From a virus, in the UHGV virus genome UHGV-1558314: a stretch of 64,000 bases of DNA, one strand, 5' to 3'. Positions 1 through 21,838 of the stretch are shown piece after piece; the stretch's first letter is position 1, and the number at the start of each line of letters is the position of its first letter. Both the position numbers and the translations under genes were made by a program. Below the pieces are notes generated by a model that was not told the origin of the DNA, ran no database searches, and was given only the letters and a program-made list of their open reading frames with translations.

Positions 1-365
1 CAACGAGGCAAATAACGTTCAATGCATTCAACTGCAGGATTGGCTGTCATGTACCACGCAAATTCTGCAGCAGCATTGAGCTTTTTCCATGGTCGTACGT
101 CAATCTTGATTTGCCGCTGTGAAGGGTCCTGAATAACTACAGACACATTCAGCAATTCTTTTGTTCGAGTCACTGTTTGTGCATTGTTGCCCTTTGATTC
201 TACAAACTCACCTCTACAATGAAGTTCATACAAAATTGAGCGAAATGCTTCTGTTGCAGTGTTTTCAATGATTGTCGTCTGTTGATAACATAAATTTGAC
301 GACAATGCTTCAGCATCATTGTACTTTATGCTGTCATTGTCATAAGGTGAATTTTTTGTGTGCAT
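1..365 (-). CDS. partial ORF running off window start (first ~121 aa); weak thymidylate-synthase-family-like region
   Basis: Own minus-strand translation: ATG at 365-363, open to position 1 (MHTKNSPYDNDSIKY...RPWKKLNAAAEFAWYMTANPAVECIERYLPR). Absent from ORF track because truncated. EFxWY resembles the ELLWF/ELEWY helix of ThyA/pyrimidine hydroxymethylases, recalled from memory only. Confidence 0.4.
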   Translation of the reverse strand, partial: MHTKNSPYDNDSIKYNDAEALSSNLCYQQTTIIENTATEAFRSILYELHCRGEFVESKGNNAQTVTRTKELLNVSVVIQDPSQRQIKIDVRPWKKLNAAAEFAWYMTANPAVECIERYLPR

Positions 366-389
366 ATTTTGGGATGTTTGTTTTTGTTA

Positions 390-1484
390 TCATACAACGA
401 CGGTATCTCGTTTGCAATCTGTTCTGTCGAATATCGAGCAACAATATGATGCAGATTGCTCTTTGATTGCAATAGCTTCGTCATTGTCAAGTGATGAAAT
501 ACCATCTATGTATGCTTTTGTATTGCCAGCGATGTCATCATTTGTTAGCAATGCTGCACGACGTTCAGTACCAAAGAAGCCAAAGCACAATTGACGCTGC
601 AATGCTTCACGAGAAATCTTGTCATCAAACTCGGATTTCATGTGTTGCATAAATTCGACAATATCATCAATGTCGCATTGAGTAAAGTCAATGTACAATT
701 TATGCATGTACTTGAATCGTTTGTAGTCTGTTGCAAGAATTTCTGGGTGCACAATGAACAACGTCTTTTTGCTGTCTATTGGATTTGCAATGACTGACGC
801 TTGAACATAATCAACAAGCACGCCAGATTCACGAAGTTGCTCAACTGTTTTGCCAAATATATGCCCAAACGTGTCATCAAACCACTTCAAGTATACTTCG
901 TTGTCTTCATCTTTTGATGCGCCAACAATGTAAATCTCATTGACTCCAAGCGCTTTAAGACGAGTGTCAGATAGCATCGTGTTCAATTGATGCTGCACAT
1001 ACAGCATTGGGCTGCTATGCAAAACTGTTTTGACAATCTCACAAGCAATGTCCATATATGCATAGTCAAGCTTTGCAGATTTTGACACATACACTGCACG
1101 TTGCTGCAATGGCTCAATTGCTGAGCATGTGGTCACAAAGTTGCCAACACATTCTGCTACTGCAATGTCATGCAAGTCATCTGCAATGTACACAATACTT
1201 GACAAGTCATCAAATGTTTGAACAAGTTGCTGAAGCTTTGTTTTGTAATTGCAGAGCATCAATGACTTGATGTTGCAATTGCCAAGCATTGTCTTGATGA
1301 GTCGTTGACCTGCTTCAGTGCTGTCACCAGAAATGACATGCACATCGCAGTCAAACCAGTTCAACATGTCGATTGCATGCCGAACGCCATATTGCATTTG
1401 TTTTGCGAACTTGCCAGATTCATTGAACAGCATTTCACCTGACATAATGCCGTCAAAGTCACATACGATTTGAAGTCTGTCCAT
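390..1484 (-). CDS. HAD-superfamily phosphatase, KdsC-like N-terminal domain plus uncharacterised C-terminal domain
   Basis: HAD motifs VCDFDGIM (DxDG), ISGDS, IADDLHD in the first ~165 aa; pattern resembles KdsC/YrbI sugar-phosphate phosphatases. Confidence 0.55.
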   Translation of the reverse strand: MDRLQIVCDFDGIMSGEMLFNESGKFAKQMQYGVRHAIDMLNWFDCDVHVISGDSTEAGQRLIKTMLGNCNIKSLMLCNYKTKLQQLVQTFDDLSSIVYIADDLHDIAVAECVGNFVTTCSAIEPLQQRAVYVSKSAKLDYAYMDIACEIVKTVLHSSPMLYVQHQLNTMLSDTRLKALGVNEIYIVGASKDEDNEVYLKWFDDTFGHIFGKTVEQLRESGVLVDYVQASVIANPIDSKKTLFIVHPEILATDYKRFKYMHKLYIDFTQCDIDDIVEFMQHMKSEFDDKISREALQRQLCFGFFGTERRAALLTNDDIAGNTKAYIDGISSLDNDEAIAIKEQSASYCCSIFDRTDCKRDTVVV

Positions 1485-1488
1485 GTTG

Positions 1489-1821
1489 CTACAATTTTGA
1501 AGTTAAGTCAATTCGAATTTTGTCTGCGTTGCTTTGGTCAACAAATCTGTCATCAAAGAAACATTCAACTACGACAAGCTTCTTTGAATTCACAAATTCG
1601 ATTAGCGATTTTTGCATTGCATCAAGTTGCTTCATGCATTTACAAAAGCTGCTGTATGACATGATTTGCTTTGGTAACATATCAAATGCGTCTGCAATTC
1701 GCTGATGAGCAATCTTTTTTGATGTTGCAATAATGACATCTGCTTTGTTGTCATTTGCATGATTGCCAAATATCGCAATATGGTAAACTTTCATTGTATG
1801 AGTGATTTTGCTGTTATACAT
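1489..1821 (-). CDS. hypothetical protein
   Basis: 110-aa ORF packed between neighbours; start may be internal (MKVYHIAIFG). Confidence 0.4.
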   Translation of the reverse strand: MYNSKITHTMKVYHIAIFGNHANDNKADVIIATSKKIAHQRIADAFDMLPKQIMSYSSFCKCMKQLDAMQKSLIEFVNSKKLVVVECFFDDRFVDQSNADKIRIDLTSKL

Positions 1822-1848
1822 TTATGTTATATATGCACATTGTGCCAG

Positions 1849-4800
1849 TTAACAAATTGATGACGTGCCATCAGTATTTGCTACAACTGTCAATGCACTA
1901 TCAAACTCATCTTGTTGCAATACATGGTCAACTATGAGTGTTTTGCGAATTGCAGAAAGCTTGGTAAGCAACTGCATCAACACTTGCTGATAATTGATAT
2001 TGTTGACATCATGCTCAGCGCCAACAATCTGCCCATTGCTAAGCTTGCCACTGATTTCGTCAATGAGCAAGATGTTGCCCACTTTGTTTAAGCGTTGAGT
2101 CAAAATGAGATGCACGATTGCAAGACCTGCGAAAGTTCCTTCCATGCCAGACATTTGACTTACACTTCGAATTGACTTCGAGCCCATCAAGTCAATCATC
2201 TTCAACACATTGTTGTCATTGATGTCAAAGAACACTCGGTAGTTCAATGAATCCAGCAAATCATTGAGCTGTGCATTCAGTGATGTTGCAATTGCTGCAA
2301 AGACATATGAAACTAAGCCTCGTTTGCTTGTGCACTGCTTATATGCATTGTACACCAAGTTTGCAATGTTCCACTTTTTCGAAGCTTGCAAATCTTTCTT
2401 GAGAGCTTCAATTCGCACATTGTTTGCTGATAAGTCTGCTTGCATTGTTGCAATTTCTGCATTGATGCTTAGCAGTTTTGAGTTCGCTTCAGTTTCATGC
2501 TGCTTAGCATCATCAATGTCGACTTGCAATGCAGCATTTGTTGTAATATGCTGCTGAGTTTGCTGTGCATGTTCAAGTGCAAATGCTGCAGCAGTCTTAT
2601 CAATCTCAAGTTGTTTAAGCGCAGACTCATATGTCGCTTTCTTATCATACTCTGCTTGAGCAATTTCAAGTTCAGCATTTATTGCAGCCAGTTCTGATTC
2701 TACTGTAGATTTTGATTGCAATACATCTTGCTTTGCTTGTTCAGCTTTACGTTTGATGTCTGCAAGTTGATTTGTGATATCTGCAATTTGCATTTTGACT
2801 GCTTCGACTTCAAGCAATGTTGCTGCAGTAGCCATTGGTTGTGCAATGAATGCATCTAAGTCTCTTTGCGCATTGACTACAGTTCTCTGCAAATCATTGA
2901 GCTTTTCTGCATGCATGTCATATGCTGCTTTGTGTGCTGGATTCAGTGCAGCAATTATTGCATTTGAATCTGTAACATCTATGATTGCTGCTTGCAGTTG
3001 CTCAATTTCATACTTCAAATTGCCAATTTTGACAACATTCTCATTGAATTGCTCTGTCTTTTGCGCACATTCTTGACGCAACTTAGCAAGCTCAGTTGAC
3101 AACCACAGCTTGTATGCTTGTCCTGTGCCAGATGTCAAGTCATTTGTACATACAGGGCATTTGTCGTTTTCAAGTTGCTTTTGCTTGTCTATAACATTGT
3201 CGATGTTTGTTTTTGCAGCAGATATTTCTGTTCTAAGTGCATTTTGAACAGTGTTGATGTCTTCAATTTGCTTTTGCAAAGCATCTATTTTTGCCCGAGT
3301 GTTTGCATTGTACGACTTGCCAAGATTTATCAGCACAGAATCAATGTGCTGCTTTGCTGCATCATATGCAAGCTTTGATTCATCAAGCTTTGTTCTGTAC
3401 AATGACTCTGCATGCGCAACTTCTTTCTGCACTTTTGCAGATAGCTCATTCTGTTTTGTAAGCAGCTCAGCATATGTATTGTGCAGCTGTGAGCCAGATG
3501 CTATGACATTTGTGTATGCTGTATTAGCTTCATTGTCAATATTAGTGAGTTGCTGCTCAATCTGTGCTTTTGCTGTTTGCAACTTAGACATATCTTGCAA
3601 TGCAAGTGCAGCAATGTCAAGCTCAACTTTGTGAATCTTTGCAATGATGCCATCGATATTTGCTGTTGCATCTTCTATAGTTAAGATGTCTGCAGGAATT
3701 TGATGTAGTTTCTTTGAGAGCTCTTCTACTTTTGCACGAGCTTTTGTAAGCTTCGCGGACCACTCTTTTTGATTATCTTGTCGTAACTGCAAAGAGTAAT
3801 TGAGTTCATTGCAAGTTGTATTGAGAGACTCAAGTTCTGCTTTTATTGCAACATCAGTCAATGCGGGCTTACTAAGGCCATCAAACAATGCAGCCTTTGC
3901 AGCATCATTAGAATTGCCAAGCTGTACAAATGTATTGATGCCAAGAGTATCAAGTAGCCAGTCATTCAATGAATTTGAGTCCATTGCAATGATTTGGTCA
4001 AGTAGTGTCTGATTGATACAAACATATCGCGACAATTCCCAGATAGAGCCAAAGATTGCATATAGCGTGTCTTTGATTTCATGCTGCGGCACTACGTAGT
4101 CATCTGACAATCTTACAAGCTGAACAGTCTCATTGACTGCTGACACGTTATCTCGCCATGAGCCATCTGCATTTATTCGAGAACCTCGTTTGAATTTGCG
4201 TTCAAGTGTTCGAATCAATTTGTAGTGAACATTTTGACCTGCTACTACATGCACAAAGACACAAGAAGCTTCAAGCTTATCATATGACTCATTGTCAATC
4301 AATTTGTCATTGAAGTATGTCAAAGCGTTCTGCTTTGTTGCTGCAGAAGACTGTTCAGCGTCAATAAAGCCAGTCAGCAGCCATTTGATAAGTCTGAAGA
4401 TTGTAGTCTTGCCATTGCCATTGTTGCCTCTAACTTGTGTAAGCTGTGCAAGATTGTCAAAGCTGACATCAACATCTTTCAATGCCATGAACTGATTTGC
4501 TTTAACATTTTGAATGACATATTTTGCAACTTCAGTGTCAAAAGACAATTTATCAATTTGTTCATCAATCAATGACTTGAACATGTCAACAAACTGCTGA
4601 GCATCTTCAGTAGCAACTATGGCATTGCGTTCAATGTATGCATTGACCCAGTCAAGTGCAGCGTCTTTAAGCCATTCAGCAGTTTGAACCTTTTGCAGCA
4701 AATTGTCGCCATTTGCGTCTACAGCATTGATTGAATCAATGACAGCAGAATCATACAGAATGTCAATTGCAGCAACAACATATGAACTTACAAGATTCTG

Positions 4801-5775
4801 TGCAATGCGCTCAACAATACCAGACAGTTCGGGCTTTGTGACCTTTGACTTGATTTTGATTTTATTGATGCGGCCAGGGTTGATGAGTGCAATCTTGTCT
4901 GTTTTGACATCATTATCAATTGTGATTGTATGATAATGCACAAGCTGCTCAAGTGGATGCCACTCTACCACAATTCGCTTGTTGTCAATATCGATGTCAA
5001 GCAAGTTGTAGCCATGTTCTGCAGTACCATGCTGTATTGCAGTGTCATTCAACAAATAGTCGCCTTCACCAAAATCTCTGACAATTGGCGAGCCGCAATA
5101 TGTTAATGTCTTATCACCAGCAACCCATATTGCATGCTTATGAATGTCACCCATTGCAACAAAGTTGCTATTAAATTGCATTGCATCTATACGACTGTCA
5201 TTGTCACCACGAACAATACAATCATCAAAGTTGACACAATTCTTTACAGGGTCATGGAACAGCTCAATGACACACATTGATGACAATGCTGCAATCTGCG
5301 ATTCATCAAGTGATGCCCAAGGCGAATATGTGCCACCAGACCACTTCTCATTTTGAGCCCATACTGCAGCAGCAAAACCAGGTGCAAGCAGTTCAACTCT
5401 TGAACTGTTGATATACTTGATTCGCTTGTCATCAATTGCAGTTACAAGCTTGTCAATGCTATCTGTCCACTGCATTTGTGAACCATCACCAGCATCAAAT
5501 GTGTTATCACGTTGCTTCAAATCATGATTGCCAGCAGTAATGACAATTTGAAGCTTGTCATTGACTTCAAGCATGCCTTTGAGCAGCTTAACAAACAGCG
5601 ACTCTTCAAGTGAATTGCTATTCCAATGCTCAAACACGTCGCCGACAATGAATACAAACTCAACTGACTTTGCTTTGTCAATTAGTTGTTTGTTGATGTG
5701 CTCATATTCTACGAAACGTCGTAAATGACCTTGTCGAACATTATATTGAATGTCTGCTATGTGAAGTGCTTTCAT
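1849..5775 (-). CDS. fused Mre11/SbcD-like nuclease and Rad50/SbcC-like ATPase
   Basis: N-terminal metallophosphoesterase motifs (LHIADIQ, GDVFEH, GNHD, GDIHKH); Walker A GNNGNGKTT; long coiled coil with CPVC zinc hook; C-terminal signature SGMEG, Walker B LLIDE, H-loop DHV. Confidence 0.8.
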   Translation of the reverse strand: MKALHIADIQYNVRQGHLRRFVEYEHINKQLIDKAKSVEFVFIVGDVFEHWNSNSLEESLFVKLLKGMLEVNDKLQIVITAGNHDLKQRDNTFDAGDGSQMQWTDSIDKLVTAIDDKRIKYINSSRVELLAPGFAAAVWAQNEKWSGGTYSPWASLDESQIAALSSMCVIELFHDPVKNCVNFDDCIVRGDNDSRIDAMQFNSNFVAMGDIHKHAIWVAGDKTLTYCGSPIVRDFGEGDYLLNDTAIQHGTAEHGYNLLDIDIDNKRIVVEWHPLEQLVHYHTITIDNDVKTDKIALINPGRINKIKIKSKVTKPELSGIVERIAQNLVSSYVVAAIDILYDSAVIDSINAVDANGDNLLQKVQTAEWLKDAALDWVNAYIERNAIVATEDAQQFVDMFKSLIDEQIDKLSFDTEVAKYVIQNVKANQFMALKDVDVSFDNLAQLTQVRGNNGNGKTTIFRLIKWLLTGFIDAEQSSAATKQNALTYFNDKLIDNESYDKLEASCVFVHVVAGQNVHYKLIRTLERKFKRGSRINADGSWRDNVSAVNETVQLVRLSDDYVVPQHEIKDTLYAIFGSIWELSRYVCINQTLLDQIIAMDSNSLNDWLLDTLGINTFVQLGNSNDAAKAALFDGLSKPALTDVAIKAELESLNTTCNELNYSLQLRQDNQKEWSAKLTKARAKVEELSKKLHQIPADILTIEDATANIDGIIAKIHKVELDIAALALQDMSKLQTAKAQIEQQLTNIDNEANTAYTNVIASGSQLHNTYAELLTKQNELSAKVQKEVAHAESLYRTKLDESKLAYDAAKQHIDSVLINLGKSYNANTRAKIDALQKQIEDINTVQNALRTEISAAKTNIDNVIDKQKQLENDKCPVCTNDLTSGTGQAYKLWLSTELAKLRQECAQKTEQFNENVVKIGNLKYEIEQLQAAIIDVTDSNAIIAALNPAHKAAYDMHAEKLNDLQRTVVNAQRDLDAFIAQPMATAATLLEVEAVKMQIADITNQLADIKRKAEQAKQDVLQSKSTVESELAAINAELEIAQAEYDKKATYESALKQLEIDKTAAAFALEHAQQTQQHITTNAALQVDIDDAKQHETEANSKLLSINAEIATMQADLSANNVRIEALKKDLQASKKWNIANLVYNAYKQCTSKRGLVSYVFAAIATSLNAQLNDLLDSLNYRVFFDINDNNVLKMIDLMGSKSIRSVSQMSGMEGTFAGLAIVHLILTQRLNKVGNILLIDEISGKLSNGQIVGAEHDVNNINYQQVLMQLLTKLSAIRKTLIVDHVLQQDEFDSALTVVANTDGTSSIC

Positions 5776-5795
5776 ATTCTAAATGAGATTTAGAT

Positions 5796-5846
5796 TATAT
5801 GTTGATATTGTACAACATGCAAAATGCACTTGCATTTTGATACAAC
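5796..5846 (-). promoter_or_regulatory. conserved intergenic motif copy 1 (putative promoter/operator) upstream of the Mre11-Rad50 gene
   Basis: tatatgttgatattgtacaacatgcaaaatgcacttgcattttgatacaac; contains palindrome TTGTACAA and inverted repeat CAAAATGCA-ct-TGCATTTTG; ends ~50 bp upstream of ATG 5775. Confidence 0.45.
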
Positions 5847-5854
5847 GTATGTCA

Positions 5855-6199
5855 TTATTTTGCAAGCATTTTGCTGATTGCATCTATCACAGTTTCACTG
5901 AGCAAGTAGTAGACAACGCTTATCAGCAATGATATCAGTACTGCAGCTGTGATAAATTGCAACGCATTCACAATTGCACGCACAAATGTTATCTGTGTGT
6001 TGTATGCAAGCACTATGCAGCATAGCACAATAATGACACACCAGACTACAATTGCATATGCAGGCATCAATGAATTTGTCCATATGCAGTACAATACAGT
6101 AGTTAGCATCAAAAATGCTATTGCTCTGATGACTGACACAATGATGTCTATGTAGAGCTTCATTACACGTAAATGAACTCTTGGCTTATGCGGTTTCAT
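5855..6199 (-). CDS. small multi-pass membrane protein (GtrA-like size and topology; speculative)
   Basis: Three to four hydrophobic helices. ORF-track start 6265 overlaps upstream gene; likely start at 6199 or 6163. Confidence 0.4.
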   Translation of the reverse strand: MKPHKPRVHLRVMKLYIDIIVSVIRAIAFLMLTTVLYCIWTNSLMPAYAIVVWCVIIVLCCIVLAYNTQITFVRAIVNALQFITAAVLISLLISVVYYLLSETVIDAISKMLAK

Positions 6200-7437
6200 C
6201 ATGACTTTATGTACAATTCTGCAAGTTGTCTGGTGTACAATCGTGGATTGTGATATGCTTTCCAATATGCAGTAGACTTTATTGCAGCAAGAATCTCATC
6301 ATAATGTTTGACTGCTTTTGCTACAACTTCATCAAGTACATGCAAATCTTCTACACTAACAAGCAGCCATTTTTCTACAATGTCAATGAATTCTTGATTG
6401 CAATTAAAGCCATATTTGTAGTTGCAAGTGTCAAGTACAAGTGGGATGCAGTCATTTGTCAGTGCTTCAAAAAATCTACGAAGACTGAAACAATTCTCAT
6501 CATATGATGGAATGCTTAATGTAAACTTGGCAGTCTTGATGAGTTGCAAATACTCTTCGTATGGAATCAGAGGACCATTGTGCTTCCACTGATTGTTATG
6601 TCGTCTTGTTGTGTACTTGAACAAAAACTTTGAACTGTCAAGCTCACAAAGATGGTCCATGCGTAAAATGTAGTTATAGCGGTCTCTTCTATCAGGCCAA
6701 CTGTCAGTCATTGCAAACACAAAGTCTCTTTGCTTGTCACATTTTGCTGACATACCTCTATGCTGACACATGCAGTACCAATATTGCTGCGATGGACTGA
6801 ACTCGAACTTTGAGTGATGCTCACTGCCATCTTTGCATTGTTGAACGTAAATATTGTCAGGCACAAAGTGAAAGTAGAAATGTCGAATTTGCAAGCCGTC
6901 AATGTAGTCAAGCTTATGCTGCAATGGGTCCTCACAGAAATTGTAACACTGAATGCGTTTTGCTGCAGCATACTCAGCAACTATGAATGTGCACACCCAT
7001 TGCAATGCGATGTCTTCACTCTTCAAAAAGTCAACAAGTGGCTCATTTGGATGCGCTTTGCATTCATTGAACATTTTGTACCACTTGCATTGCTCCATGT
7101 CATACTTGGAGACTGTATTGCCATTAAAAAATGACACAGTATCAATTTTGAATGCCTCAAGTTGTTTATGCACAATGTCGATTGCTTGTGCATATGTGAC
7201 AGTCTCATCAGACATTATTTGTGCAAACTTGATTGGATGCGCATGCAAATTTGCAATTGTGTCTGCTGACATTTTGCGCTGTGTATGATAATCGACATAC
7301 AAAAACTGACACTTGTCTGTAAGCAATTCAAGCATTGCTACAGATTTCCATCGAATTGCTTGAAAGAAATTGAAGTGCGCAGTTTGAAAAATGAGATGCG
7401 TAGGCTTGTCAGAATGAGTCAAAGTTTGCATGGACAA
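6199..7437 (-). CDS. glycosyltransferase-like protein (exostosin/GT47-like C-terminal motif), paralog of 10462..12018
   Basis: Shared motifs with 10462..12018: NFCEDPLQHKLDYID, PSQQYWY, FTLSIPSYDENCFSLRRFFEALTNDCIPLV (S-x-R-x-x-E...C-I/V-P-L-V). Confidence 0.5.
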   Translation of the reverse strand: MSMQTLTHSDKPTHLIFQTAHFNFFQAIRWKSVAMLELLTDKCQFLYVDYHTQRKMSADTIANLHAHPIKFAQIMSDETVTYAQAIDIVHKQLEAFKIDTVSFFNGNTVSKYDMEQCKWYKMFNECKAHPNEPLVDFLKSEDIALQWVCTFIVAEYAAAKRIQCYNFCEDPLQHKLDYIDGLQIRHFYFHFVPDNIYVQQCKDGSEHHSKFEFSPSQQYWYCMCQHRGMSAKCDKQRDFVFAMTDSWPDRRDRYNYILRMDHLCELDSSKFLFKYTTRRHNNQWKHNGPLIPYEEYLQLIKTAKFTLSIPSYDENCFSLRRFFEALTNDCIPLVLDTCNYKYGFNCNQEFIDIVEKWLLVSVEDLHVLDEVVAKAVKHYDEILAAIKSTAYWKAYHNPRLYTRQLAELYIKS

Positions 7438-8594
7438 ATGTCGCAGTTATGTTGATGTTTGTGTTTATTTATGAAGTCATATGTCACTGCAAAAAAGTGC
7501 TTTGCAATGTCATATCGAGTTTTCAAATATGCTGCTTGTCGTTCACAAAATGCTGCATAAATATCTGGGTGTTGTTTGAATGCTGCAATGCGTTGCTGTA
7601 CTTGTTCTGCAGAATGCACATATGACACTTTGCTCAAATATACATCATCTGCAAATAATCGTTTGTCTTTGTCAACTGCGCAATCAACAAAAGTTGCAAT
7701 TCGTGCAACAATTGCTTCACCGACACGATTTGGTATTAGCCCATATTGCTCATATTGCTGTTCGCCGATAGCAATGTGTGCTGCTGCATATGACATTGCA
7801 TATGGCACACTATAAAATGGCACACTAAAATCAAATGAACAATTTGACTGCAGCAATTGTGTTTGTGCATCAGACAATCTACTTGTCAAGTTGCCTGTAT
7901 ATTTGTGCTCACCAAGAAAACTTGAGCGACAGCCTGAATCTACATAGTATCGAATGACTTTGTTTATGCGACTGTCAGATAGCATATGCCAATCTCTTGT
8001 AGCATATATCAAGTCTACTGTTTTTGCGCCAATATGACGAGGCTCTATCGCAACATTGCTGTATGTTGGCAGCATAAACAATGGCAGCCATTTGACATTG
8101 TTGAACACTGAATGCTCATTTGACAAATTCATGCACTGGCTAAGTTCAAGTACTGGCTCATCATACACGCCATGTAGCTCAACTCTGCCTGCATGCACAA
8201 AGTTGACACGCTTAAATGGAAATCGCATATCAGTGCAAACTGTCATTCTTGCTGCAATAGACATTCGCCACATAGCATGCAGCTTAACAACTGCTTCTGC
8301 TTGAGGTCGAGGCAACATATTTAGCAAATCAATCCAGCCGCCCCACAAAATCCAAACATCATTTGAACAGATGTTGAATTGCAAACTCAATATGTCTTCT
8401 ACTGTTGTAGCAATAATGTCATGCCCATTGATGCTTGCAAGGTGTTTTCGTTGATTTGCAATAATAATGACTTGACTGAATGGAGACTCTGGAAATGACA
8501 CAAGCGCTTTTGCAAACAACACGGGTTCTTGCGACACCAAGTTGTTTGAGTATGGGTCGATTATGCAATCAAGCTTGTGTATGAAGAGTCTCAT
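7419..8594 (-). CDS. hypothetical protein, paralog of 12015..13181 (second gene of duplicated module)
   Basis: Shared segments with 12015..13181 (ILWGGW/IFWQGS, MRFPFKRV/LRFDFDKE, LIPNRVGEAIV/LLPNRWVEGVL); overlaps upstream gene by 19 nt. Confidence 0.5.
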   Translation of the reverse strand: MRLFIHKLDCIIDPYSNNLVSQEPVLFAKALVSFPESPFSQVIIIANQRKHLASINGHDIIATTVEDILSLQFNICSNDVWILWGGWIDLLNMLPRPQAEAVVKLHAMWRMSIAARMTVCTDMRFPFKRVNFVHAGRVELHGVYDEPVLELSQCMNLSNEHSVFNNVKWLPLFMLPTYSNVAIEPRHIGAKTVDLIYATRDWHMLSDSRINKVIRYYVDSGCRSSFLGEHKYTGNLTSRLSDAQTQLLQSNCSFDFSVPFYSVPYAMSYAAAHIAIGEQQYEQYGLIPNRVGEAIVARIATFVDCAVDKDKRLFADDVYLSKVSYVHSAEQVQQRIAAFKQHPDIYAAFCERQAAYLKTRYDIAKHFFAVTYDFINKHKHQHNCDICPCKL

Positions 8595-9325
8595 TTTGCA
8601 GATGATTCAAAAAATTTGTAGACATCGCAGTTAGCAATGTGGTCATTCCAAGCATCTTCAGAGTCTGCAACAAAGCCACAATGACAGCGTTTTGGCTGCC
8701 AAACTGGTTCAACTACTGCAGGCATTGCTTCTTCAATAGTGTTTGCAGGTTCATTATCTGCTGGCAATACTTCAACGTCTTCAACTTGTGCTGCATCTTG
8801 TTGTGCACGCTGCTCAATGACATTGCCCTCAAAGTCAAACTGAATGCCAGCTTGTTCTGCTTTTGTACGATTATTACGAGCTACGAACAAATACGCAAAG
8901 ATGAATTCGACAAGCGCTATGGCAAGTGACTTCAGTGCATTGACAAGAAGCATGATGCCTGTTGATAAATGGCCGTCAAAGCTCAAAAACACGAACACAC
9001 ATGTAAAGCATGACATAAACACTGCAATCAGTGGAATGTTCTTGTATTTTGGCAACAAATCAGAGTTGACTGATGTAAGCAACACAACGAATTGATAACC
9101 TATTGCAAGCCAATAGTCGCCAAACACTGCATAGATATGCGTAGTGATGCCAATAAGAAATGTGATAGTCACAATCATAATGAGCAACACACTTGTCAGA
9201 AAGTCTGCAATAGAATTGCTGAGCTTGTCATACCAGTGTTTGTTGACAATTGACGTGTTGGCTACGCGCACTTTACTAAGTGCATCTATGCCGCTTTTGA
9301 TATTTGATTGTGCTTTCATACACAT
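8591..9325 (-). CDS. membrane protein with C-terminal Cys/His cluster
   Basis: Several hydrophobic helices; C-terminal CHCGF...HIANCD. Confidence 0.5.
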   Translation of the reverse strand: MCMKAQSNIKSGIDALSKVRVANTSIVNKHWYDKLSNSIADFLTSVLLIMIVTITFLIGITTHIYAVFGDYWLAIGYQFVVLLTSVNSDLLPKYKNIPLIAVFMSCFTCVFVFLSFDGHLSTGIMLLVNALKSLAIALVEFIFAYLFVARNNRTKAEQAGIQFDFEGNVIEQRAQQDAAQVEDVEVLPADNEPANTIEEAMPAVVEPVWQPKRCHCGFVADSEDAWNDHIANCDVYKFFESSAK

Positions 9326-9331
9326 ATAACG

Positions 9332-9469
9332 TTATATCATATCTACACACAAAGCAAATGCTACTGCAAGTGCAGCCATAATTGCATATACGACTATCGA
9401 TGCAGTATAATCTGATTCAGGATTCCACTTATCAGGTGTGTTAAGCTTGTGATACTTGTCTCGTCTCAT
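9332..9469 (-). CDS. small ORF (45 aa) with C-terminal hydrophobic helix, below ORF-track cutoff
   Basis: Own translation: MRRDKYHKLNTPDKWNPESDYTASIVVYAIMAALAVAFALCVDMI. Confidence 0.25.
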   Translation of the reverse strand: MRRDKYHKLNTPDKWNPESDYTASIVVYAIMAALAVAFALCVDMI

Positions 9470-9572
9470 CTTGAGTCAAAAAATGATGGCTGCTGCTACA
9501 TTTTGTGAAATCATGTGCAGCAGCCATCTGGCAGGTTTCTTGCTTTGTAAAGCTTGGATAGAGGATGGATTT

Positions 9573-9623
9573 TATATGTTGATATTGTACAACATGCAAA
9601 ATGTATTTGCATTTTGATACAAC
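9573..9623 (-). promoter_or_regulatory. conserved intergenic motif copy 2
   Basis: tatatgttgatattgtacaacatgcaaaatgtatttgcattttgatacaac; near-identical to copy 1 (2-3 substitutions). Confidence 0.45.
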
Positions 9624-9631
9624 ATATATTG

Positions 9632-9847
9632 TCATTTTGCACAGTCTGATGCAATTAAATCTTTGTCAAAGCATTCATCTATAATGTCTTCAATAAGATA
9701 CGCTTCGACATTGTTAAGCTTCAAGATATCTACGAGTTTTGCTTTGATATCGCAAGCTAATGCAGATTCGACTGTATGCAATATGACTGATGATACGACA
9801 TGCTTGTCTGTCATCATTTGTAATTGCTGTGGTGTTACTCTACTCAT
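9632..9847 (-). CDS. hypothetical small protein
   Basis: 71-aa ORF abutting the kinase-like gene. Confidence 0.35.
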   Translation of the reverse strand: MSRVTPQQLQMMTDKHVVSSVILHTVESALACDIKAKLVDILKLNNVEAYLIEDIIDECFDKDLIASDCAK

Positions 9848-10416
9848 GCGCCAAGTTCAGCTAAGCATTTCAACACATTGTCTTGCAGACTTGCATTGTT
9901 GTCAATTTCGACAATATGCAATGGTGAGTTCTTTCGCCACTCATCATATGCAGCAATCATTTCATTGCGTTTGCTGACATCAATGTTGACATCACCGCAA
10001 AAATTATCGACAAAATCTGGCACAACATCACGCTTGCATAAGAACACTACGTGCGGCAATGTTGCAAGCTTCTTTTCATATGCTTCAAAGAATGCTTGAT
10101 GCTTATCAGTGTGCAGCTCTTTGTAAAGCGTTGTGTTGAAGATTTGATGCGTGATGAATGAACGGTCACACAAAAACGTTGCTTTGCCAAAGCCTTGAGA
10201 GTCATTTCCAATGAACTCTAAGAAGAAGCGCCAATCATAAAAGAACGCTTCATTGAGGTCCCAAGGTTCGGGCATTGGGTCATCACCTGACTCATGCTGC
10301 TGCCACCAAGAACGAGATGTTCGTTTGCAATTGATAAACCATGGGCGCCACTTCATCAATTCATTGATGAGTGTTGTTTTGCCTGAAGCTTCTACACCTT
10401 CAAATATCGCTATCAT
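9844..10416 (-). CDS. P-loop nucleotide kinase (dNMP kinase / thymidylate-kinase-like)
   Basis: N-terminal IAIFEGVEASGKTT Walker A and FLCDRS (DRY/DRS-like) motif; resembles phage dNMP kinases and thymidylate kinases. Confidence 0.55.
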   Translation of the reverse strand: MIAIFEGVEASGKTTLINELMKWRPWFINCKRTSRSWWQQHESGDDPMPEPWDLNEAFFYDWRFFLEFIGNDSQGFGKATFLCDRSFITHQIFNTTLYKELHTDKHQAFFEAYEKKLATLPHVVFLCKRDVVPDFVDNFCGDVNIDVSKRNEMIAAYDEWRKNSPLHIVEIDNNASLQDNVLKCLAELGA

Positions 10417-10461
10417 TGTGTATTATGTTTGATTTTTGATTACAGTACAACGTAGTTATGC

Positions 10462-12018
10462 TCATTGCACTTCTACGAATGGCTCTTTCAACACAAAGCT
10501 GTCACCATTGCAACATGCGGCTGAGCCATCGTCTGCATCAAGTGCGCATGACATATCAGACTTGCAGAACTTGCAATATGAACATGACCATGCATGACTC
10601 ATAAAGTTGTTTGCTTCACAAATTACACAGCGCTCATGTGAAAGTGTATTGTCGCAATTGTCACAAGACTTCTTGATTGGCACATCTTTATTGATATATG
10701 CAAGATGCAATGCAATATCATACACAAAGTCACCCGTATATTGCTGAATGAAATCAGTGTGCCACAACTCTTTTAACAATTGTGTATGTCTATATGGCTG
10801 AACAATGTCTTCAAGATGCTGCAAGTCATCATCGCTAACCATGAGCTTCTTAATGACAAACTGTTTGAACTGCGGCCATCTGTCAAACATATAGAGTTTG
10901 CATGAGTTGTGCACAAGTGGAACACAGCCAAGCACAATGCTTTCACAGAATCTACGCAAACTAAAACAGTTTGCATCATATGACGGCACAATCAATGTGA
11001 ATCTGCTATGCTTGATGAGTTCAAGGTATGTGTCATATGGCAGTAGCTTGTCTGACAATGGCTGCTGTTGCTTGTCCCTGCTGAAAAATCTGAACACAAT
11101 GCCTTTATCAATTGCATCTTGATTGTGCAGATGCATGAGTTTGTTGATGAGTTCTGTGCGTTCAGTTTTGTCTCGCCAAGTATTCGTCAATGCAAATGCA
11201 AAATTCAGTCGCTTGTCATCAAACGTCGCTTCAATGTCATCCCAAGTTTTGTCATGCAAATACCAGTATTGCTGTGATGGGCACCATCCATAATATGCAA
11301 TAGCGTCTTGTTCTGCTGTAACGTCATACACATATGCAGAATTGTATTCAAGGCCAAGCCCTTTGACATTGTTGCAGTCATGAAAGTACCAATGCTGCAC
11401 TTTGAATATCTTTGATGCACTGAATGCGCTTTCATATGGCCCTGAATAGCGATAGTCAATGTAATTGAGCTTGTGCTGCAATGGGTCTTCGACAAAGTTG
11501 TTTATGACTGTGCCTTGTTGTTTGCCATTAGTCTTGCGAGCATTCAATGCAATATTGTACTGCATAATGACTGACAGCATCTCATACACTACATACATGA
11601 GTGCTTTGTAGACTGAGCCTGCTGCGTCAATTAGCGGCAAATCACGTTTGACTGATGCAGTACCAAATGTCTTGCAATATGCAGAAAATGTATCAAGTTC
11701 TGCCTGTTGAAATGAATTGCATGCGCCATTGAATATGTTGAATGTTGCAATGTAGCTCATATTACAAGATGTCATTGACATATCAAGACGCTTCATAATG
11801 TCAGCAATGCGACATTGAGCAAAATCTGACACATCAACATATTTGACATGATGACCTGATGCAGTCAAGCCAACTGCGACTTCTTTCATTTGTGGCACAA
11901 AGCCTACTACAATGAACAAGTCATCTTTGTTTGCTCGTTCAAACATTGCTGCACTTTTCCAAGTCAATGAATTGAAAAAGTCTATGTAGCCAGTCTGTGT
12001 GATGATATGTGTTCTCAT
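10462..12018 (-). CDS. glycosyltransferase-like protein (exostosin/GT47-like motif) with C-terminal Cys-rich extension
   Basis: NFVEDPLQHKLNYID, PSQQYWY, FTLIVPSYDANCFSLRRFCESIVLGCVPLV; Cys-rich tail (CDNCDN...CVICE...CSYCKFC). Confidence 0.5.
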   Translation of the reverse strand: MRTHIITQTGYIDFFNSLTWKSAAMFERANKDDLFIVVGFVPQMKEVAVGLTASGHHVKYVDVSDFAQCRIADIMKRLDMSMTSCNMSYIATFNIFNGACNSFQQAELDTFSAYCKTFGTASVKRDLPLIDAAGSVYKALMYVVYEMLSVIMQYNIALNARKTNGKQQGTVINNFVEDPLQHKLNYIDYRYSGPYESAFSASKIFKVQHWYFHDCNNVKGLGLEYNSAYVYDVTAEQDAIAYYGWCPSQQYWYLHDKTWDDIEATFDDKRLNFAFALTNTWRDKTERTELINKLMHLHNQDAIDKGIVFRFFSRDKQQQPLSDKLLPYDTYLELIKHSRFTLIVPSYDANCFSLRRFCESIVLGCVPLVHNSCKLYMFDRWPQFKQFVIKKLMVSDDDLQHLEDIVQPYRHTQLLKELWHTDFIQQYTGDFVYDIALHLAYINKDVPIKKSCDNCDNTLSHERCVICEANNFMSHAWSCSYCKFCKSDMSCALDADDGSAACCNGDSFVLKEPFVEVQ

Positions 12019-13181
12019 GATTTGAATGTTTGTTCAAGAATTGTGTAACACTGCACAATCATTACTGCAAGAGCTTTTTGCTGTGCTTGTTTGCAATCAT
12101 CAAAATTTGTGGGCGCAGTGCGTACGCGTGTTTTGCTATTAAGTGTCGCAAATGTCGCGTAGTCATCGAAGCCTATAATGTCAGCAAATAGGGCAATTGG
12201 CTTATAATCTACAAGTATGTTGCAGCAATTTGCAAGTACGCCTTCAACCCATCGATTTGGCAGCAAGTCTGCTTGCACATACAATGAATCACCAACTACA
12301 AGATTGTATGCCGACTGTGACATTACACGCGGCATTGCATCGTATGTGACTTTGTATTTAAGTGTAAAGTTTGGTGCTGCTGATTTAATCGCAGACAAAA
12401 TTGTGTCATCAAGATATGATGTTATGAGACACGTGTCGCACATATGTATGACAAATTGTTCAATCACACTTCTACGATACTCGTCAAGATATGTGAAACC
12501 TGCACAACTTGCACAGCATGCATATTGCTGCTTTATGTCAGCAAAGCTACGCACATGAGCTTCAATTGCATTTTGCATCGTTACTTGTAGTTTAAGCAAT
12601 CTTGGCTCTTTAATGTATTGAAGCTTCAATGCATTGACTGCTGCAATGATTTGCAATGGGGCAAACACACATTGAGACTCATCAAGCCAAGCGTATTTGA
12701 GATTTTTGTGCTGGCATAGATGCGTAATGTTGTCTTTTTGTGATTCTAAGTACTCTTTGTAATTGTGCAATCGCTTTGTCAATGTGCATTCTTTATCAAA
12801 GTCGAATCGCAAATCAGTTGTTAGTGTAAATTTGCGAGCGTTTGACAAACACCATGTTTTGAATGCATTCCACAGAACATCTTGCTGAAATTCTGAGCAA
12901 TGTTCAAGAGCAGCCTTTGAACCTTGCCAGAATATTGCGCAATCATCTGATTTTGCGCACTTCAGCATATCTTGCCATGCATGTATGTTATTGATAATAT
13001 GCACATTATCATACACAAGCTCATCAAGTATTGCATGCTTGTTCTCAGGGTCGCCAAACACATATACAGCATCAAACATTGTCTGCACAAAACCTGCAAA
13101 TGCAATAGGTTCTGTATGCTTAAGATGCTGTACGTCTGAACGCACGCATGTGTCAAATTTCAAAATGAATAGTTTGCTCAT
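12015..13181 (-). CDS. hypothetical protein, paralog of 7419..8594
   Basis: See 7419..8594; overlaps upstream gene by 4 nt. Confidence 0.5.
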   Translation of the reverse strand: MSKLFILKFDTCVRSDVQHLKHTEPIAFAGFVQTMFDAVYVFGDPENKHAILDELVYDNVHIINNIHAWQDMLKCAKSDDCAIFWQGSKAALEHCSEFQQDVLWNAFKTWCLSNARKFTLTTDLRFDFDKECTLTKRLHNYKEYLESQKDNITHLCQHKNLKYAWLDESQCVFAPLQIIAAVNALKLQYIKEPRLLKLQVTMQNAIEAHVRSFADIKQQYACCASCAGFTYLDEYRRSVIEQFVIHMCDTCLITSYLDDTILSAIKSAAPNFTLKYKVTYDAMPRVMSQSAYNLVVGDSLYVQADLLPNRWVEGVLANCCNILVDYKPIALFADIIGFDDYATFATLNSKTRVRTAPTNFDDCKQAQQKALAVMIVQCYTILEQTFKS

Positions 13182-13878
13182 ATACTTTGCAATTATCTAT
13201 TACATGTTGATATTGTACTTCATCTATGATGTGATTTGCAATGACACCATATGAGGCGTCATACATTGGCATCTTCTCATATGACAATGCTGCGTCAAGA
13301 TTGCATATCACATAATTGCAATGCACAATGTCATCTACATTGTCACTAACTGCTACGATATTGACACACTTTGCAAGAAATGCATCATCAAAGTCTACTT
13401 GATTGCATGCAACCTCATAATCTGCTGCGCTTCTTGGGTACCAATATAACTCAATGCCAGCACTACTAAGTAGTCGCAAGCCATCTATGTGATGATACAA
13501 GTCAACAAAATGCACTTGCTTAACGCCTGCTTGCAAAATAAGCTTTGCGCAATCAATGCATGGACTGTATGTTACATACAGCACTGCGTCATTTGCGGTC
13601 GCATTGCCATATTTGCACAGCTTCATCAATGCGTTTGATTCTGCATGCAAAACTTCTTTGTTGGTTTTGATACCTGCCGATGTTGCATGCTCACAACAAT
13701 TTGACATGCCAGTTGGCATGCCATTGTAGCCATCTGAAATTATGCAACCATTTTTTACAAGCAATGCGCCAACTTTTGCTCGCTGAGCATATGAATTTAA
13801 TGACCAAAGCTCAGCCATTTTAAGATATATGAGATTTCGTTGAAACTGCTTTGTTTCAGACCAAGTTAGCCATTTCAT
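13153..13878 (-). CDS. dCMP deaminase (cytidine/deoxycytidylate deaminase family) with C-terminal extension
   Basis: Zinc-binding motifs VLHAESNAL (HxE) and SPCIDCAKLI (PCxxC). Confidence 0.85.
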   Translation of the reverse strand: MKWLTWSETKQFQRNLIYLKMAELWSLNSYAQRAKVGALLVKNGCIISDGYNGMPTGMSNCCEHATSAGIKTNKEVLHAESNALMKLCKYGNATANDAVLYVTYSPCIDCAKLILQAGVKQVHFVDLYHHIDGLRLLSSAGIELYWYPRSAADYEVACNQVDFDDAFLAKCVNIVAVSDNVDDIVHCNYVICNLDAALSYEKMPMYDASYGVIANHIIDEVQYQHVIDNCKVYEQTIHFEI

Positions 13879-13882
13879 ATGC

Positions 13883-15265
13883 TTACAGTGAGTTTATAAT
13901 TTTGATAAAGTCTGTTACAATGTTTGTATGCAACTCAATGAGATAGTTGTCTTGTAATGTCATAAGCTCATCAAGTTCATCTACACTTAATGACTTGAAG
14001 ACTTCTGCACAATGCTTGGCATTTTTGATGTGTGCGACTTTATGATACTTGATAAAGTCAGGACACACACAATTATTCACGTACATACAAGGCAAGCCTG
14101 CAAGCATTGATTCAGTTGCTCTGAATGTAATTGCGTTGCATTGTTTCATATTCTCTTCACACACAATGTATGCAAAGTCGAACTGCGACAAGTATGTTAA
14201 CATGTCAAAATACTTGATTGTGCCATTATAGACATGTGGCATATCAATGTCGATATTGCCGACAACATGAGTTTCGATGTCTGCGCAGCCAAGCAAATCA
14301 ATGACTTCTTGTTTGCGTTCAGCGCACATGTCATTCCAAGCAACCATCGGCATTGCAGTAGTCAACTTGCCTGATTGCAATTTTGCTAAACGTTTTTCGT
14401 TATGTGATGCATACAATGGAATGCCTTCAAGTCTTGCATGCTGAATTGTGTTGACATTGATTTCTGTCAGCATTGACAACGCATTATGCATGTTCTGTGC
14501 TTGTGTGACAACTGTCATCTTTTTGCAGCGCAATCTAAAGTTTGCAATGTGTGGCACGAGTCGTAAATCATACCACAGCCATACAATGTCACCCTTCCAT
14601 GACTCAATAAGCTGCTTGTGCTGTTTGTAGATGACTGACTGACTCATCAAGTCATTCATTGCTGAGCATACAATGTACAACACACCATATTTGTCAATTG
14701 AGTGCTGCACATAGTCAACTGAGCAGCATAGCACATCTTTGTCGAAAAGTTTTGGGTCATGCACTTCTGCATCATCTACAATAAGATGTGCCTTGTATTG
14801 ATGCTGCTTTGTTGCATCAATGATGCGAGCAATTGCAAAGCATTCTCTACTTTGAATGTCTGTCTTATCTTGTCGTGGTTGGTCTTGTGTTCGTACAGGA
14901 TATGCAGGCTTAAGTATTACAGGCACAAAATGTGTTTTTGCAGAATATGGTGCATCTACTGCAGCAAACTCCGCGTTGCATCGTTGTGAATGCAGATGTC
15001 GTGCATATGATTGCAACAATTCATGAATCATTGCAATGTACTCTTTCAATTCAAACAGCTCGTGTACAGTTGCGTTTGTTATGTCGACTACGACAGTTTG
15101 TCGCACAATTGGATACACACAAATAACGTAATCATTATATGATAGTGGAATGCCTATAAATGCTGAGCATCTGTTTCGAAGCCATGCAATGCAATCAGCG
15201 TCAAACACAATTTCATATTGCTGCTGCAAAGCATTTAATTGCGCTATAATCAAATCATTGTGCAT
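13883..15265 (-). CDS. GT-B fold glycosyltransferase (GT1/GT4-like)
   Basis: C-terminal FAYIVCEENMKQCNAITFRATESMLAGLPCMYVN resembles the E-x7-E / EAMA-G-P donor-binding motif. Confidence 0.45.
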   Translation of the reverse strand: MHNDLIIAQLNALQQQYEIVFDADCIAWLRNRCSAFIGIPLSYNDYVICVYPIVRQTVVVDITNATVHELFELKEYIAMIHELLQSYARHLHSQRCNAEFAAVDAPYSAKTHFVPVILKPAYPVRTQDQPRQDKTDIQSRECFAIARIIDATKQHQYKAHLIVDDAEVHDPKLFDKDVLCCSVDYVQHSIDKYGVLYIVCSAMNDLMSQSVIYKQHKQLIESWKGDIVWLWYDLRLVPHIANFRLRCKKMTVVTQAQNMHNALSMLTEINVNTIQHARLEGIPLYASHNEKRLAKLQSGKLTTAMPMVAWNDMCAERKQEVIDLLGCADIETHVVGNIDIDMPHVYNGTIKYFDMLTYLSQFDFAYIVCEENMKQCNAITFRATESMLAGLPCMYVNNCVCPDFIKYHKVAHIKNAKHCAEVFKSLSVDELDELMTLQDNYLIELHTNIVTDFIKIINSL

Positions 15266-15289: not shown

Positions 15290-15405
15290 AATATATTGTA
15301 CAACATGTATTGAGCTTTTGCACAACATATGTTGTTAAAATATCATCATTGTACAACATAAAGCGCATATTTGCACGTTGTGTTGCTAAAAATATTGTTA
15401 TTGTA
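15290..15405 (-). promoter_or_regulatory. cluster of three TTGTACA(A/C) boxes upstream of gene 13883..15265
   Basis: attgtacaacatg, cattgtacaacat, ttattgtacacaa within ~110 bp. Confidence 0.4.
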
Positions 15406-15440
15406 CACAAAACAAGCAGACTGCAATTGCAGTCTGCTTG
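15405..15440 (-). terminator. rho-independent terminator after gene 15488..16033
   Basis: Perfect 28-bp palindrome caagcagactgcaattgcagtctgcttg followed on the minus strand by TTTTGTG. Confidence 0.6.
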
Positions 15441-15487
15441 CACTTGTTATTAACCCTTAAAATCAATGACACTATGTCAATGTCATT

Positions 15488-21787: not shown

Positions 21788-21838
21788 TATTGTGCAACAT
21801 GCATATTCATATTGTATATGAATATGATACAACATGCG
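21788..21838 (-). promoter_or_regulatory. motif variant with 10-bp inverted repeat, upstream of gene 20568..21701
   Basis: tattgtgcaacatgc...atattcatat-tgt-atatgaatat...gatacaacatgcg. Confidence 0.4.

Follow-up and report, generated by a model that had tools for sequence, protein, structure and literature searches.

Why would a phage carry five glycosyltransferase genes among genes for nucleotide metabolism, and what do these enzymes glycosylate? The question is raised by positions 1-15265 of a 64-kb stretch of the virus genome UHGV-1558314 (hereafter the window), where the listing of open reading frames (ORFs) contains only minus-strand genes, in an unbroken row. The window corresponds to the final 64 kb of a phage contig from a metagenome (175,564 bp; JGI 3300045988; IMGVR_UViG_3300045988_149023), and the rest of it encodes SSB, a UvsW-like helicase, a sigma-70-like factor, and baseplate and other structural proteins of a large myovirus. 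An earlier inspection of the letters alone (the sequence-only reading) had proposed a DNA hypermodification cluster or, alternatively, a module that modifies host-surface polysaccharide; every ORF that it listed is present, on the minus strand and where it had been placed. At a probability of about 0.8, we interpret the interval as an island for T4-type hypermodification of cytosine in the genome of a large uncultivated myovirus, a modification that we infer wholly from its genes. The hypermodification proposal is supported by a thymidylate synthase (TS) homolog with a hydroxymethylase signature, by three homologs of the T4 DNA β-glucosyltransferase (β-GT) that keep its catalytic residues, and by two further glycosyltransferases (GTs) that have T4 β-GT among their best structural matches. 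The genes that carry this reading are listed below, with protein lengths in amino acids (aa).

1-365, minus strand: N-terminal 121 codons of a 293-aa TS-family protein, predicted dCMP hydroxymethylase (5-hydroxymethyl-dCMP synthase); the remainder lies beyond the window start (L001:11120-12001)
6199-7437, minus strand: GTB412, a 412-aa GT-B glycosyltransferase, proposed extending transferase of module 1
7419-8594, minus strand: BGT391, a 391-aa homolog of T4 β-GT (BLASTP, profile, PHROG), proposed initiating transferase of module 1
10462-12018, minus strand: GTB518, a 518-aa paralog of GTB412 whose C-terminal tail (about 75 aa) is rich in Cys; within module 2, the proposed extending transferase
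12015-13181, minus strand: BGT388, a 388-aa paralog of BGT391 (T4 β-GT family) that keeps the TDLRF and NRWVE motifs, proposed initiating transferase of module 2
13883-15265, minus strand: BGT460, a third protein of the T4 β-GT family (profile-profile comparison), 460 aa long and divergent, with an N-terminal extension of about 130 aa

The thymidylate synthase homolog

The fragment at 1-365 matches the PHROG family 'thymidylate synthase' at 3e-5. The parent contig, found through a public-assembly look-up of the neighbouring 364-aa protein, allowed us to read past the window edge; the window and this parent-contig stretch amount to about 80 kb of the 175.5-kb contig, which is the sequence read in this study. 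A contig walk one step past L001 gave 6 kb of ORFs without family matches. Completing the truncated ORF, a check put forward with the sequence-only reading, confirmed the TS-like N-terminus noticed there: the full 293-aa protein matches PF00303 (Thymidylat_synt) at 3.7e-24, with 85.8 bits against a cut-off of 24.3. Its top PDB match is the CMP hydroxymethylase MilA (1.5e-22), and the catalytic Cys (E. coli C146) is invariant in the alignment that holds it. We aligned the protein with T4 gp42, RB69 gp48, the SP8 and ViI-like dUMP hydroxymethylases and the phage's own TS. In E. coli ThyA numbering, residues 143/169/177 are as follows.

293-aa TS homolog: D/D/D
T4 gp42: D/D/D
RB69 gp48 (5-hydroxy-dCMP synthase): E/N/D
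dUMP hydroxymethylases (SP8, ViI-like): D/D/N
The phage's own 352-aa TS: L/D/N

The corresponding motifs in the 293-aa protein are KDMPC (L143D), FCND (N177D) and RSND (D169 kept), and Asp at both 143 and 177 is also found in T4 gp42 and MilA. According to published residue rules, N177D switches the substrate to cytosine, L143D/E is associated with hydroxymethyl products and water access, and D169N is the mark of the newly found flavin-dependent 5-hydroxy-dCMP synthases (PMC13326640, 2026). Because it shares its active-site signature with T4 gp42, the 293-aa TS homolog is predicted to be a dCMP hydroxymethylase of the gp42 type.

Three other identities do not fit this protein. As a canonical ThyA, the protein reaches a best NCBIfam score of 79.3 bits against a cut-off of 174.55, falls below the cut-off of every TS equivalog, and has D/D at residues 143/177. 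The dUMP hydroxymethylases of SP8 and the ViI-like phages retain N177, which is Asp here. Finally, the D169N of the 5-hydroxy-dCMP synthase branch (RB69 gp48 type) is absent, the motif being RSND here versus RSQN in RB69 gp48 and RSNN in gp182 of Sphingomonas phage PAU.

A second, canonical TS of 352 aa is encoded 3 kb further on (L001:15227-16285); with 256 bits it exceeds the TIGR03284 cut-off, and it retains Leu at position 143 and Asn at position 177. Relative to other TS sequences, about 30 inserted residues follow the catalytic-Cys strand of this protein, and its C-terminus is extended. A related observation concerns Agathobaculum phage AB434P2, where the gene at L018:314-976 is annotated as a deoxyuridylate hydroxymethyltransferase, yet has Asp at the N177 position (GFPYD); a cytosine substrate is therefore predicted, and the database annotation is probably wrong.

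Glycosyltransferases of two families

BGT391 matches T4 β-GT by BLASTP (5e-7) and PHROG 7922 'beta-glucosyltransferase' at 1.4e-7, and its family profile aligns with T4 β-GT in hhalign at 94.5% probability (E 8e-8). BGT388 is 24% identical to BGT391 (E 8e-14). In a joint alignment of T4 β-GT, BGT391, BGT388 and their relatives, the equivalents of E22, D100, R269 and E272 of the T4 enzyme are invariant, and R195 is retained in BGT391. We take E22 and D100 to be the proposed catalytic residues and R269 and E272 to be ligands of the nucleotide sugar (UDP-sugar). D100 has been cited as catalytic (bioRxiv 10.1101/2023.12.21.572611).

BGT460 is far more divergent. Neither BLASTP against BGT391, BGT388 and T4 β-GT nor a profile-to-single-sequence comparison gave a match; only the broader profile-profile comparison succeeded, aligning it with the T4 β-GT family over 275 columns at 88.7% probability (E 2.6e-6), as compared to 0.5% for an unrelated family used as a negative control. 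Residues E141, D233, R382 and E385 of BGT460 fall in register with E22, D100, R269 and E272 of T4 β-GT. All three proteins belong to the T4 DNA β-glucosyltransferase family (CAZy GT63); they are expected from this homology to adopt the GT-B fold with two Rossmann-like domains, and are predicted to transfer sugar to 5-hydroxymethylcytosine (5hmC) in DNA. Proteins of the BGT391 family have at their very end, within the last 12 residues, a conserved HxCDxCP motif, which may be a zinc-binding and perhaps DNA-contacting appendage.

The other two transferases, GTB412 and GTB518, are 30% identical to each other (E 5e-47). A confident structure model for these paralogs displays a full GT-B fold, in which two Rossmann-like domains and a C-terminal nucleotide-sugar site can be recognized as modelled. 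T4 β-GT is the second-best PDB match of the model, and the second match among viral models is annotated as a DNA β-glucosyltransferase. A similar pairing was described for GT94, a metavirome enzyme that adds a Kdo-like sugar acid to 5hmC, whose top two neighbours are PglH and T4 β-GT (bioRxiv 10.1101/2023.12.21.572611). We found no sequence link between the GTB and BGT families (hhalign 0.1-1.7%). The Cys-rich tail of GTB518 (residues 445-518) has a weak PHF5-like zinc-finger match, and may likewise bind zinc and perhaps contact DNA.

These results change how the transferases had been described. The two proteins called exostosin/GT47-like in the sequence-only reading are not GT47, as they score 21.6 (GTB412) and 25.5 bits (GTB518) against a PF03016 cut-off of 33.4 and their structure is a generic GT-B. 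The label GT4 was imprecise: the transferases are GT-B proteins, three of them in the T4 β-GT family. The count of 'at least three' was right as to the presence of transferases and short as to their number, which is five GT-B proteins (those at 7419-8594, 12015-13181 and 13883-15265 besides the two 'GT47-like' ones). Their layout consists of two copies of a two-gene unit, in which a BGT homolog is followed by a GTB gene with an overlapping start, and the solitary BGT homolog BGT460. Membrane segments are absent from all five GTs, and also from the kinase and the HAD protein described below.

Accessory genes, putative transcription units and relatives

The remaining features of the island and of its upstream edge are the following.

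390-1484, minus strand: 364-aa HAD protein, in which a KdsC/YrbI-type phosphatase domain (residues 1-155) is followed by a C-terminal domain of about 200 aa that is poorly conserved
1489-1821, minus strand: 110-aa protein without family match; relative L020 has a 110-aa ORF at the same place, with no BLAST similarity detected between the two
1849-5775, minus strand: 1308-aa fused Mre11/Rad50 (SbcD/SbcC-type) nuclease-ATPase, a syntenic neighbour and not a modification enzyme
5807-5817, minus strand: promoter-like 11-mer TGTTGTACAAT, upstream of the Mre11/Rad50 fusion gene (1849-5775)
5855-6265, minus strand: small membrane protein with 3 hydrophobic segments; the public gene call is 102 aa (5855-6163)
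8591-9325, minus strand: 244-aa multi-pass membrane protein with 3-4 hydrophobic segments and an acidic, Cys/His-containing C-terminal tail
9584-9594, minus strand: promoter-like 11-mer TGTTGTACAAT, in the gap of about 300 bp before the membrane-protein gene (8591-9325)
9632-9847, minus strand: 71-aa protein (ORF and gene call) with no significant family match
9844-10416, minus strand: 190-aa P-loop nucleotide kinase (P-loop GVEASGKTT), candidate 5-hydroxymethyl-dCMP kinase
13153-13878, minus strand: 241-aa dCMP deaminase (PF00383) with a C-terminal extension of about 90 aa
15295-15305 and 15348-15358, minus strand: two exact copies of the promoter-like 11-mer TGTTGTACAAT, before the first island gene
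15412-15441, minus strand: terminator-like hairpin (13-bp stem, then a T-run) at the 5' boundary of the island, where it ends the transcription unit upstream

The dCMP deaminase named in the sequence-only reading is unambiguous: it matches PF00383 at 5.5e-21, with 74.8 bits against a curated cut-off of 25, and its translation contains the zinc motifs HAE (VLHAES) and PCxxC (SPCIDC). The protein described there as a dNMP-kinase-like P-loop protein is a P-loop kinase, but does not reach the curated dNMP/thymidylate kinase cut-off. It is 35% identical (E 5e-28) to a 'thymidylate kinase' that adjoins the TS homolog of Chryseobacterium phage MA9V-2, and its orthologs in the relatives L020 and L022 are 44-51% identical. 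There was no PDB sequence match, and the alignment to RB69 gp45 was restricted to the P-loop. We infer that this protein is the 5-hydroxymethyl-dCMP kinase.

The KdsC-like HAD phosphatase fusion was likewise correctly recognized, with a KdsC-type domain and an extra C-terminal domain. The phosphatase domain matches TIGR01670 (KdsC) at 1.9e-9, below cut-off, and its family profile matches solely KdsC, YrbI and KDN-9-P phosphatase structures in the PDB (best 2e-13). Among 26 family members, D9, D11, G12, K83 and D103 are invariant and D102 nearly so. It is not the Kdo-8-P phosphatase itself, as it scores 37.7 bits against 106.95 for TIGR01670 and 30.2 against 208 for NF007019, and has 364 aa with an extra domain. 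The C-terminal domain had no Pfam match in the 26 family members and no PDB match with a 5-sequence profile. The clade is small, with 38 members among 1.84 billion representatives; its homologs adjoin the TS homolog in phage MA9V-2 and an NDP-sugar route in phage PAU. In at least three phage groups, a member of this small, distinct KdsC-type clade is encoded beside a pyrimidine-modifying TS homolog.

The Mre11/Rad50 fusion (Metallophos 2.2e-5, AAA_23 2.7e-10) takes up a quarter of the interval and was absent from the sequence-only reading. It is kept in the relatives with 1309-1313 aa, and occupies the same position in L008, L020 and L021. Both membrane proteins that had been noted, at 8591-9325 and 5855-6265, have the expected hydrophobic segments (3-4 each). 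Orthologs of the 244-aa protein (L020:8084-8845, L022:8008-8805) are 46-52% identical and lie directly upstream of the BGT391 ortholog; in all relatives examined, a membrane protein is encoded directly 5' of a β-GT homolog. No function suggests itself for this protein.

The four exact copies of TGTTGTACAAT in the 64-kb window are all on the minus strand, all within the island, and each 5' of a gene start, whereas we estimate about 0.03 by chance. The 11-mer is likely a phage-specific promoter containing a TACAAT -10-like element, and the positions of its copies indicate that the island apparently consists of three co-regulated transcription units. The boundary earlier drawn at 15265 agrees with the terminator hairpin at 15412-15441 and the two promoter-like motifs just upstream of the first gene. 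A scan for sigma-70 promoters gave a signal no greater than chance, and public gene calls are mutually inconsistent in the gap of about 300 bp around 9584-9594. A copy of TGTTGTACAAT with one mismatch lies at 21789-21799, upstream of the SSB gene. The phage also encodes its own sigma factor, a 298-aa protein with Sigma70_r2 and Sigma70_r4 domains (46988-47884, minus strand), among the structural genes.

The 15-kb interval has no nucleotide-level relatives among 50,697 phage genomes (megablast), the contig is accompanied in IMG/VR by nothing but a 97% twin, and homolog searches yielded few relatives (5, 2 and 12). The order of the island is repeated in assemblies from ENA and Logan, with identities of 26-55%: BGT460-like, deaminase, BGT388-like, GTB518-like, kinase, variable genes, membrane protein, BGT391-like, GTB412-like, Mre11/Rad50, HAD, hydroxymethylase and helicase. 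This recurrence suggests that the duplication of the transferase module is old and that the island is stable in a small phage lineage. The BGT-GTB unit is also found beside a fused Mre11/Rad50 gene in an NCBI-deposited contig, and orthologs of GTB518 are present in L020 and L022. Gene content varies among the relatives, as L020 has no BGT388 ortholog and L008 has one GTB gene. SSB, helicase and Mre11/Rad50 genes surround the island in all of them.

Of special interest is the more distant Sphingomonas phage PAU, in which β-GT homologs adjoin a TS homolog at an equivalent genomic position. The PAU TS homolog, gp182 (L016:8177-8884), reads RSNN, which is the D169N signature of the 5-hydroxy-dCMP synthases. 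The PAU HAD homolog lies directly after an NTP-transferase/APH fusion and near an arabinose-5-P isomerase (L015:3790-7951, gp212-gp216), a gene layout that is also that of the RB69 NDP-arabinose route (PMC13326640). PAU was not among the phages tested in that study; its DNA probably contains glycosylated 5-hydroxycytosine (5hoC). In addition to the β-GT homologs, PAU encodes dTDP-rhamnose genes.

Proposed pathway, alternatives and known systems

We propose that the TS homolog converts dCMP to 5-hydroxymethyl-dCMP, as its homology and active-site signature suggest. The P-loop kinase and the host NDP kinase would raise this nucleotide to the triphosphate, which the phage polymerase would incorporate, while the dCMP deaminase and the separate canonical TS would sustain the dTTP supply, as cd and td do in T4. 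After replication, the soluble GT-B transferases would glycosylate 5hmC in DNA. The three T4 β-GT homologs would act on 5hmC directly, two of them each paired with a second GT-B enzyme that lengthens the first sugar, following the initiator-plus-extender logic of the gentiobiosyl-hmC of T2 and T6. This would yield adducts of di- or oligosaccharides, perhaps two kinds of them. The KdsC-family phosphatase would most likely dephosphorylate a sugar phosphate, feeding an unusual nucleotide-sugar donor, and this is the weakest step. Such glycosylated DNA would withstand host restriction and CRISPR nucleases.

We also advance, as a tentative extension that is possible rather than probable, that the two modules, the third β-GT homolog and the phosphatase together build a glycan of at least three sugars, or two glycans, in which at least one residue comes from an unusual phage-made donor (ulosonic acid, pentose). 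If true, no DNA base known to date would be as heavily glycosylated. The conserved membrane protein might couple modification to the cell membrane, and such a partner is unprecedented among described DNA-modification pathways. Glycosylated hydroxymethyl- or hydroxycytosine is a main route by which phages escape restriction enzymes and CRISPR nucleases, and every further glycan adds to the targets of type IV restriction and to the tools available for DNA chemistry. The island supplies five candidate DNA glycosyltransferases in two families.

Several observations weigh against this interpretation. GTB412 and GTB518 are tied to T4 β-GT by fold only (hhalign 1.7%), and PglH, a bacterial GT acting on lipid-linked sugars, matches them equally well, so that DNA is put forward as their acceptor from context. 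In BGT391, R191 of T4 β-GT is not conserved, and the AlphaFold model of BGT460, made with 3 sequences, is unusable (pLDDT 38.7). The family matches of the kinase are weak, at 15 bits for Thymidylate_kin, 14.5 for dNK and 18.8 for AAA_28, all below the cut-off of 27. Within the roughly 80 kb read, we found no isomerase, anomeric kinase or nucleotidyltransferase that could partner the HAD phosphatase; local tblastn with the RB69 arabinose-pathway proteins, PAU gp212 and PAU gp215 returned nothing. The same kind of search there found no T4 gp56-type dCTPase, and full replacement of cytosine is therefore not established.

The acceptor might also be a different one. Were it 5hoC, as in RB69, DLP3 and RL38J1, the TS homolog would be a flavin-dependent 5-hydroxy-dCMP synthase and the sugars would be ether-bonded to C5. 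The proven 5-hydroxy-dCMP synthases likewise have MilA, the solved structure nearest to this homolog, as their top structural match (PMC13326640, Table 1), 5hoC systems typically group a TMK-like kinase with GTs and a HAD phosphatase, and the distantly related PAU, with the same BGT-like and HAD families, has D169N in its TS homolog. The absence of D169N here, with an RSND motif as in T4 gp42 that is also read in the L020 ortholog, makes this improbable under a residue rule drawn from one paper's tested enzyme set. The sequence-only reading had offered another acceptor, a host or virion glycan modified by a seroconversion-like module, with the nucleotide enzymes as ordinary dNTP-supply neighbours. 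It could account for the two membrane proteins, one of them conserved beside BGT391, and for a KdsC-like enzyme of the lipopolysaccharide-pathway type. Seroconversion modules consist of membrane-embedded Gtr-type or O-antigen enzymes, usually in temperate phages and next to the integration module. Here, the GTs lack membrane segments, no Gtr, Wzy or O-antigen family was matched in the family scans, and three of the GTs are homologous to a family known only as DNA glucosyltransferases. Furthermore, the TS homolog has a hydroxymethylase and not a TS signature although a normal TS is also encoded, and in all relatives the genes sit among SSB, helicase and Mre11/Rad50, in the replication/recombination module of a lytic-type myovirus. 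We thus consider a surface glycan as acceptor very improbable.

Returning to glycosylated 5hmC in DNA, two of its elements have competing explanations. The five GTs could be redundant alternatives (for anomers, sequence contexts or donors) that broaden counter-defence on a simple mono-glycosylated 5hmC, with no chain building. T4 has two GTs that each add a single glucose (PMC13216743); all three BGT-like proteins keep the residues expected for acting directly on the base; and copy number is flexible, judging from the missing BGT388 ortholog of L020 and the one GTB gene of L008. We find this rather unlikely, since the BGT-like and GTB genes form a conserved, translationally overlapping pair in both copies here and in L008, L020 and L022, the two families are too dissimilar to be simple alternatives, and adjoining GT pairs in other phage clusters work sequentially (bioRxiv 10.1101/2023.12.21.572611). 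The HAD protein, for its part, may act on nucleotides instead of sugar phosphates and so adjust the dNTP pool, for instance by removing dCMP, dCDP or another canonical precursor. Its gene lies beside the TS homolog and not beside sugar-activating genes here, in L020 and in MA9V-2, where it is near the kinase too, and the role of the dCTPase is vacant in the sequence read. As the sugar-pathway partners are also missing from the sequence read, this nucleotide-pool role stays a serious rival, although we favour a sugar-phosphate phosphatase because of the KdsC-only profile matches and the PAU gene layout. The structures matched are all phosphatases of ulosonic-acid phosphates (KdsC, KDN-9-P phosphatase), and the PAU homolog follows an NTP-transferase/APH fusion near an arabinose-5-P isomerase. 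Moreover, HAD phosphatases cleave monoester phosphates and would waste dCMP, the substrate of the hydroxymethylase. Overall, a nucleotide phosphatase appears possible but the less probable of the two roles.

How does the island compare with described systems? Chryseobacterium phages MA9V-1 and MA9V-2, myoviruses of about 215 kb, have four neighbouring genes in common with it, namely the KdsC-like HAD domain (32% identity), the P-loop kinase (35%), a D/D/D TS homolog (44%) and the helicase, and no homolog of any of the five GTs (tblastn). We found no report on the DNA modification status of these two phages in the literature, which was accessible in part.

The 5hoC systems of RB69, DLP3 and RL38J1 (PMC13326640), together with the PAU cluster, share with the island a MilA-like TS homolog, a TMK-like nucleotide kinase within the cluster, a HAD phosphatase, and several GT-B transferases, which in those systems build mono- to tri-saccharides; PAU has the same BGT-like and HAD families. 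They differ in D169N, whose absence here leads us to predict 5hmC and not 5hoC as the base, and in their arabinose-5-P isomerase and NDP-sugar synthesis genes, which were not found here in the roughly 80 kb. The HAD domain of RB69 and DLP3 is 1xpj-like, whereas that of the island is KdsC-type.

The description of the pathway as uncharacterised holds for its chemistry but not for the kind of system, as ThyS-associated clusters with T4-βGT-like enzymes have been catalogued from metaviromes (bioRxiv 10.1101/2023.12.21.572611). In those ThyS- or 5mYOX-associated clusters of GT-B enzymes ('subclass III', CAZy GT63-like), T4-βGT-like enzymes are encoded beside a ThyS homolog, secondary GTs and a dCMP deaminase, as here. 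Enzymes of the metavirome clusters install Kdo or heptose, and one cluster requires a HAD-containing enzyme (bioRxiv 10.1101/2023.12.21.572611). The characterised ones make 5hmC after replication, via a methyltransferase and a TET-like oxidase, whereas this island is predicted to do so before replication; no cytidylyltransferase or APH partner was seen here. The supplementary tables of the study do not name this contig.

The closest parallel is the T4 hmC pathway (gp42, gp1, cd, td, α-GT, β-GT). The hydroxymethylase active-site signature is identical, both encode a separate canonical TS as well as a dCMP deaminase, and T4 β-GT is homologous to island GTs with E22, D100, R269 and E272 conserved. 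The T2/T6 gentiobiosyl variant (βα-GT) provides the initiator-plus-extender logic proposed here. Even the neighbourhood is similar: α-gt of T4 lies next to genes 46 and 47, and the GTs of the island lie next to an Mre11/Rad50-type nuclease, although the Rad50-like and Mre11-like proteins are the products of the separate genes 46 and 47 in T4 and a single fused protein here. The phage has no nucleotide-level relationship with Straboviridae, carries five GT-B genes where T4 has two, arranges its GTs in a duplicated two-gene module, and shows no gp56-type dCTPase in the sequence read; its kinase is not gp1-like by sequence, and it has a KdsC-family phosphatase and a conserved membrane protein. 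What differs from the known scheme is therefore the number and arrangement of the GTs, the non-gp1 kinase, the KdsC-type phosphatase and the membrane partner, and the island would extend the T4 paradigm to an unrelated, uncultivated phage lineage.

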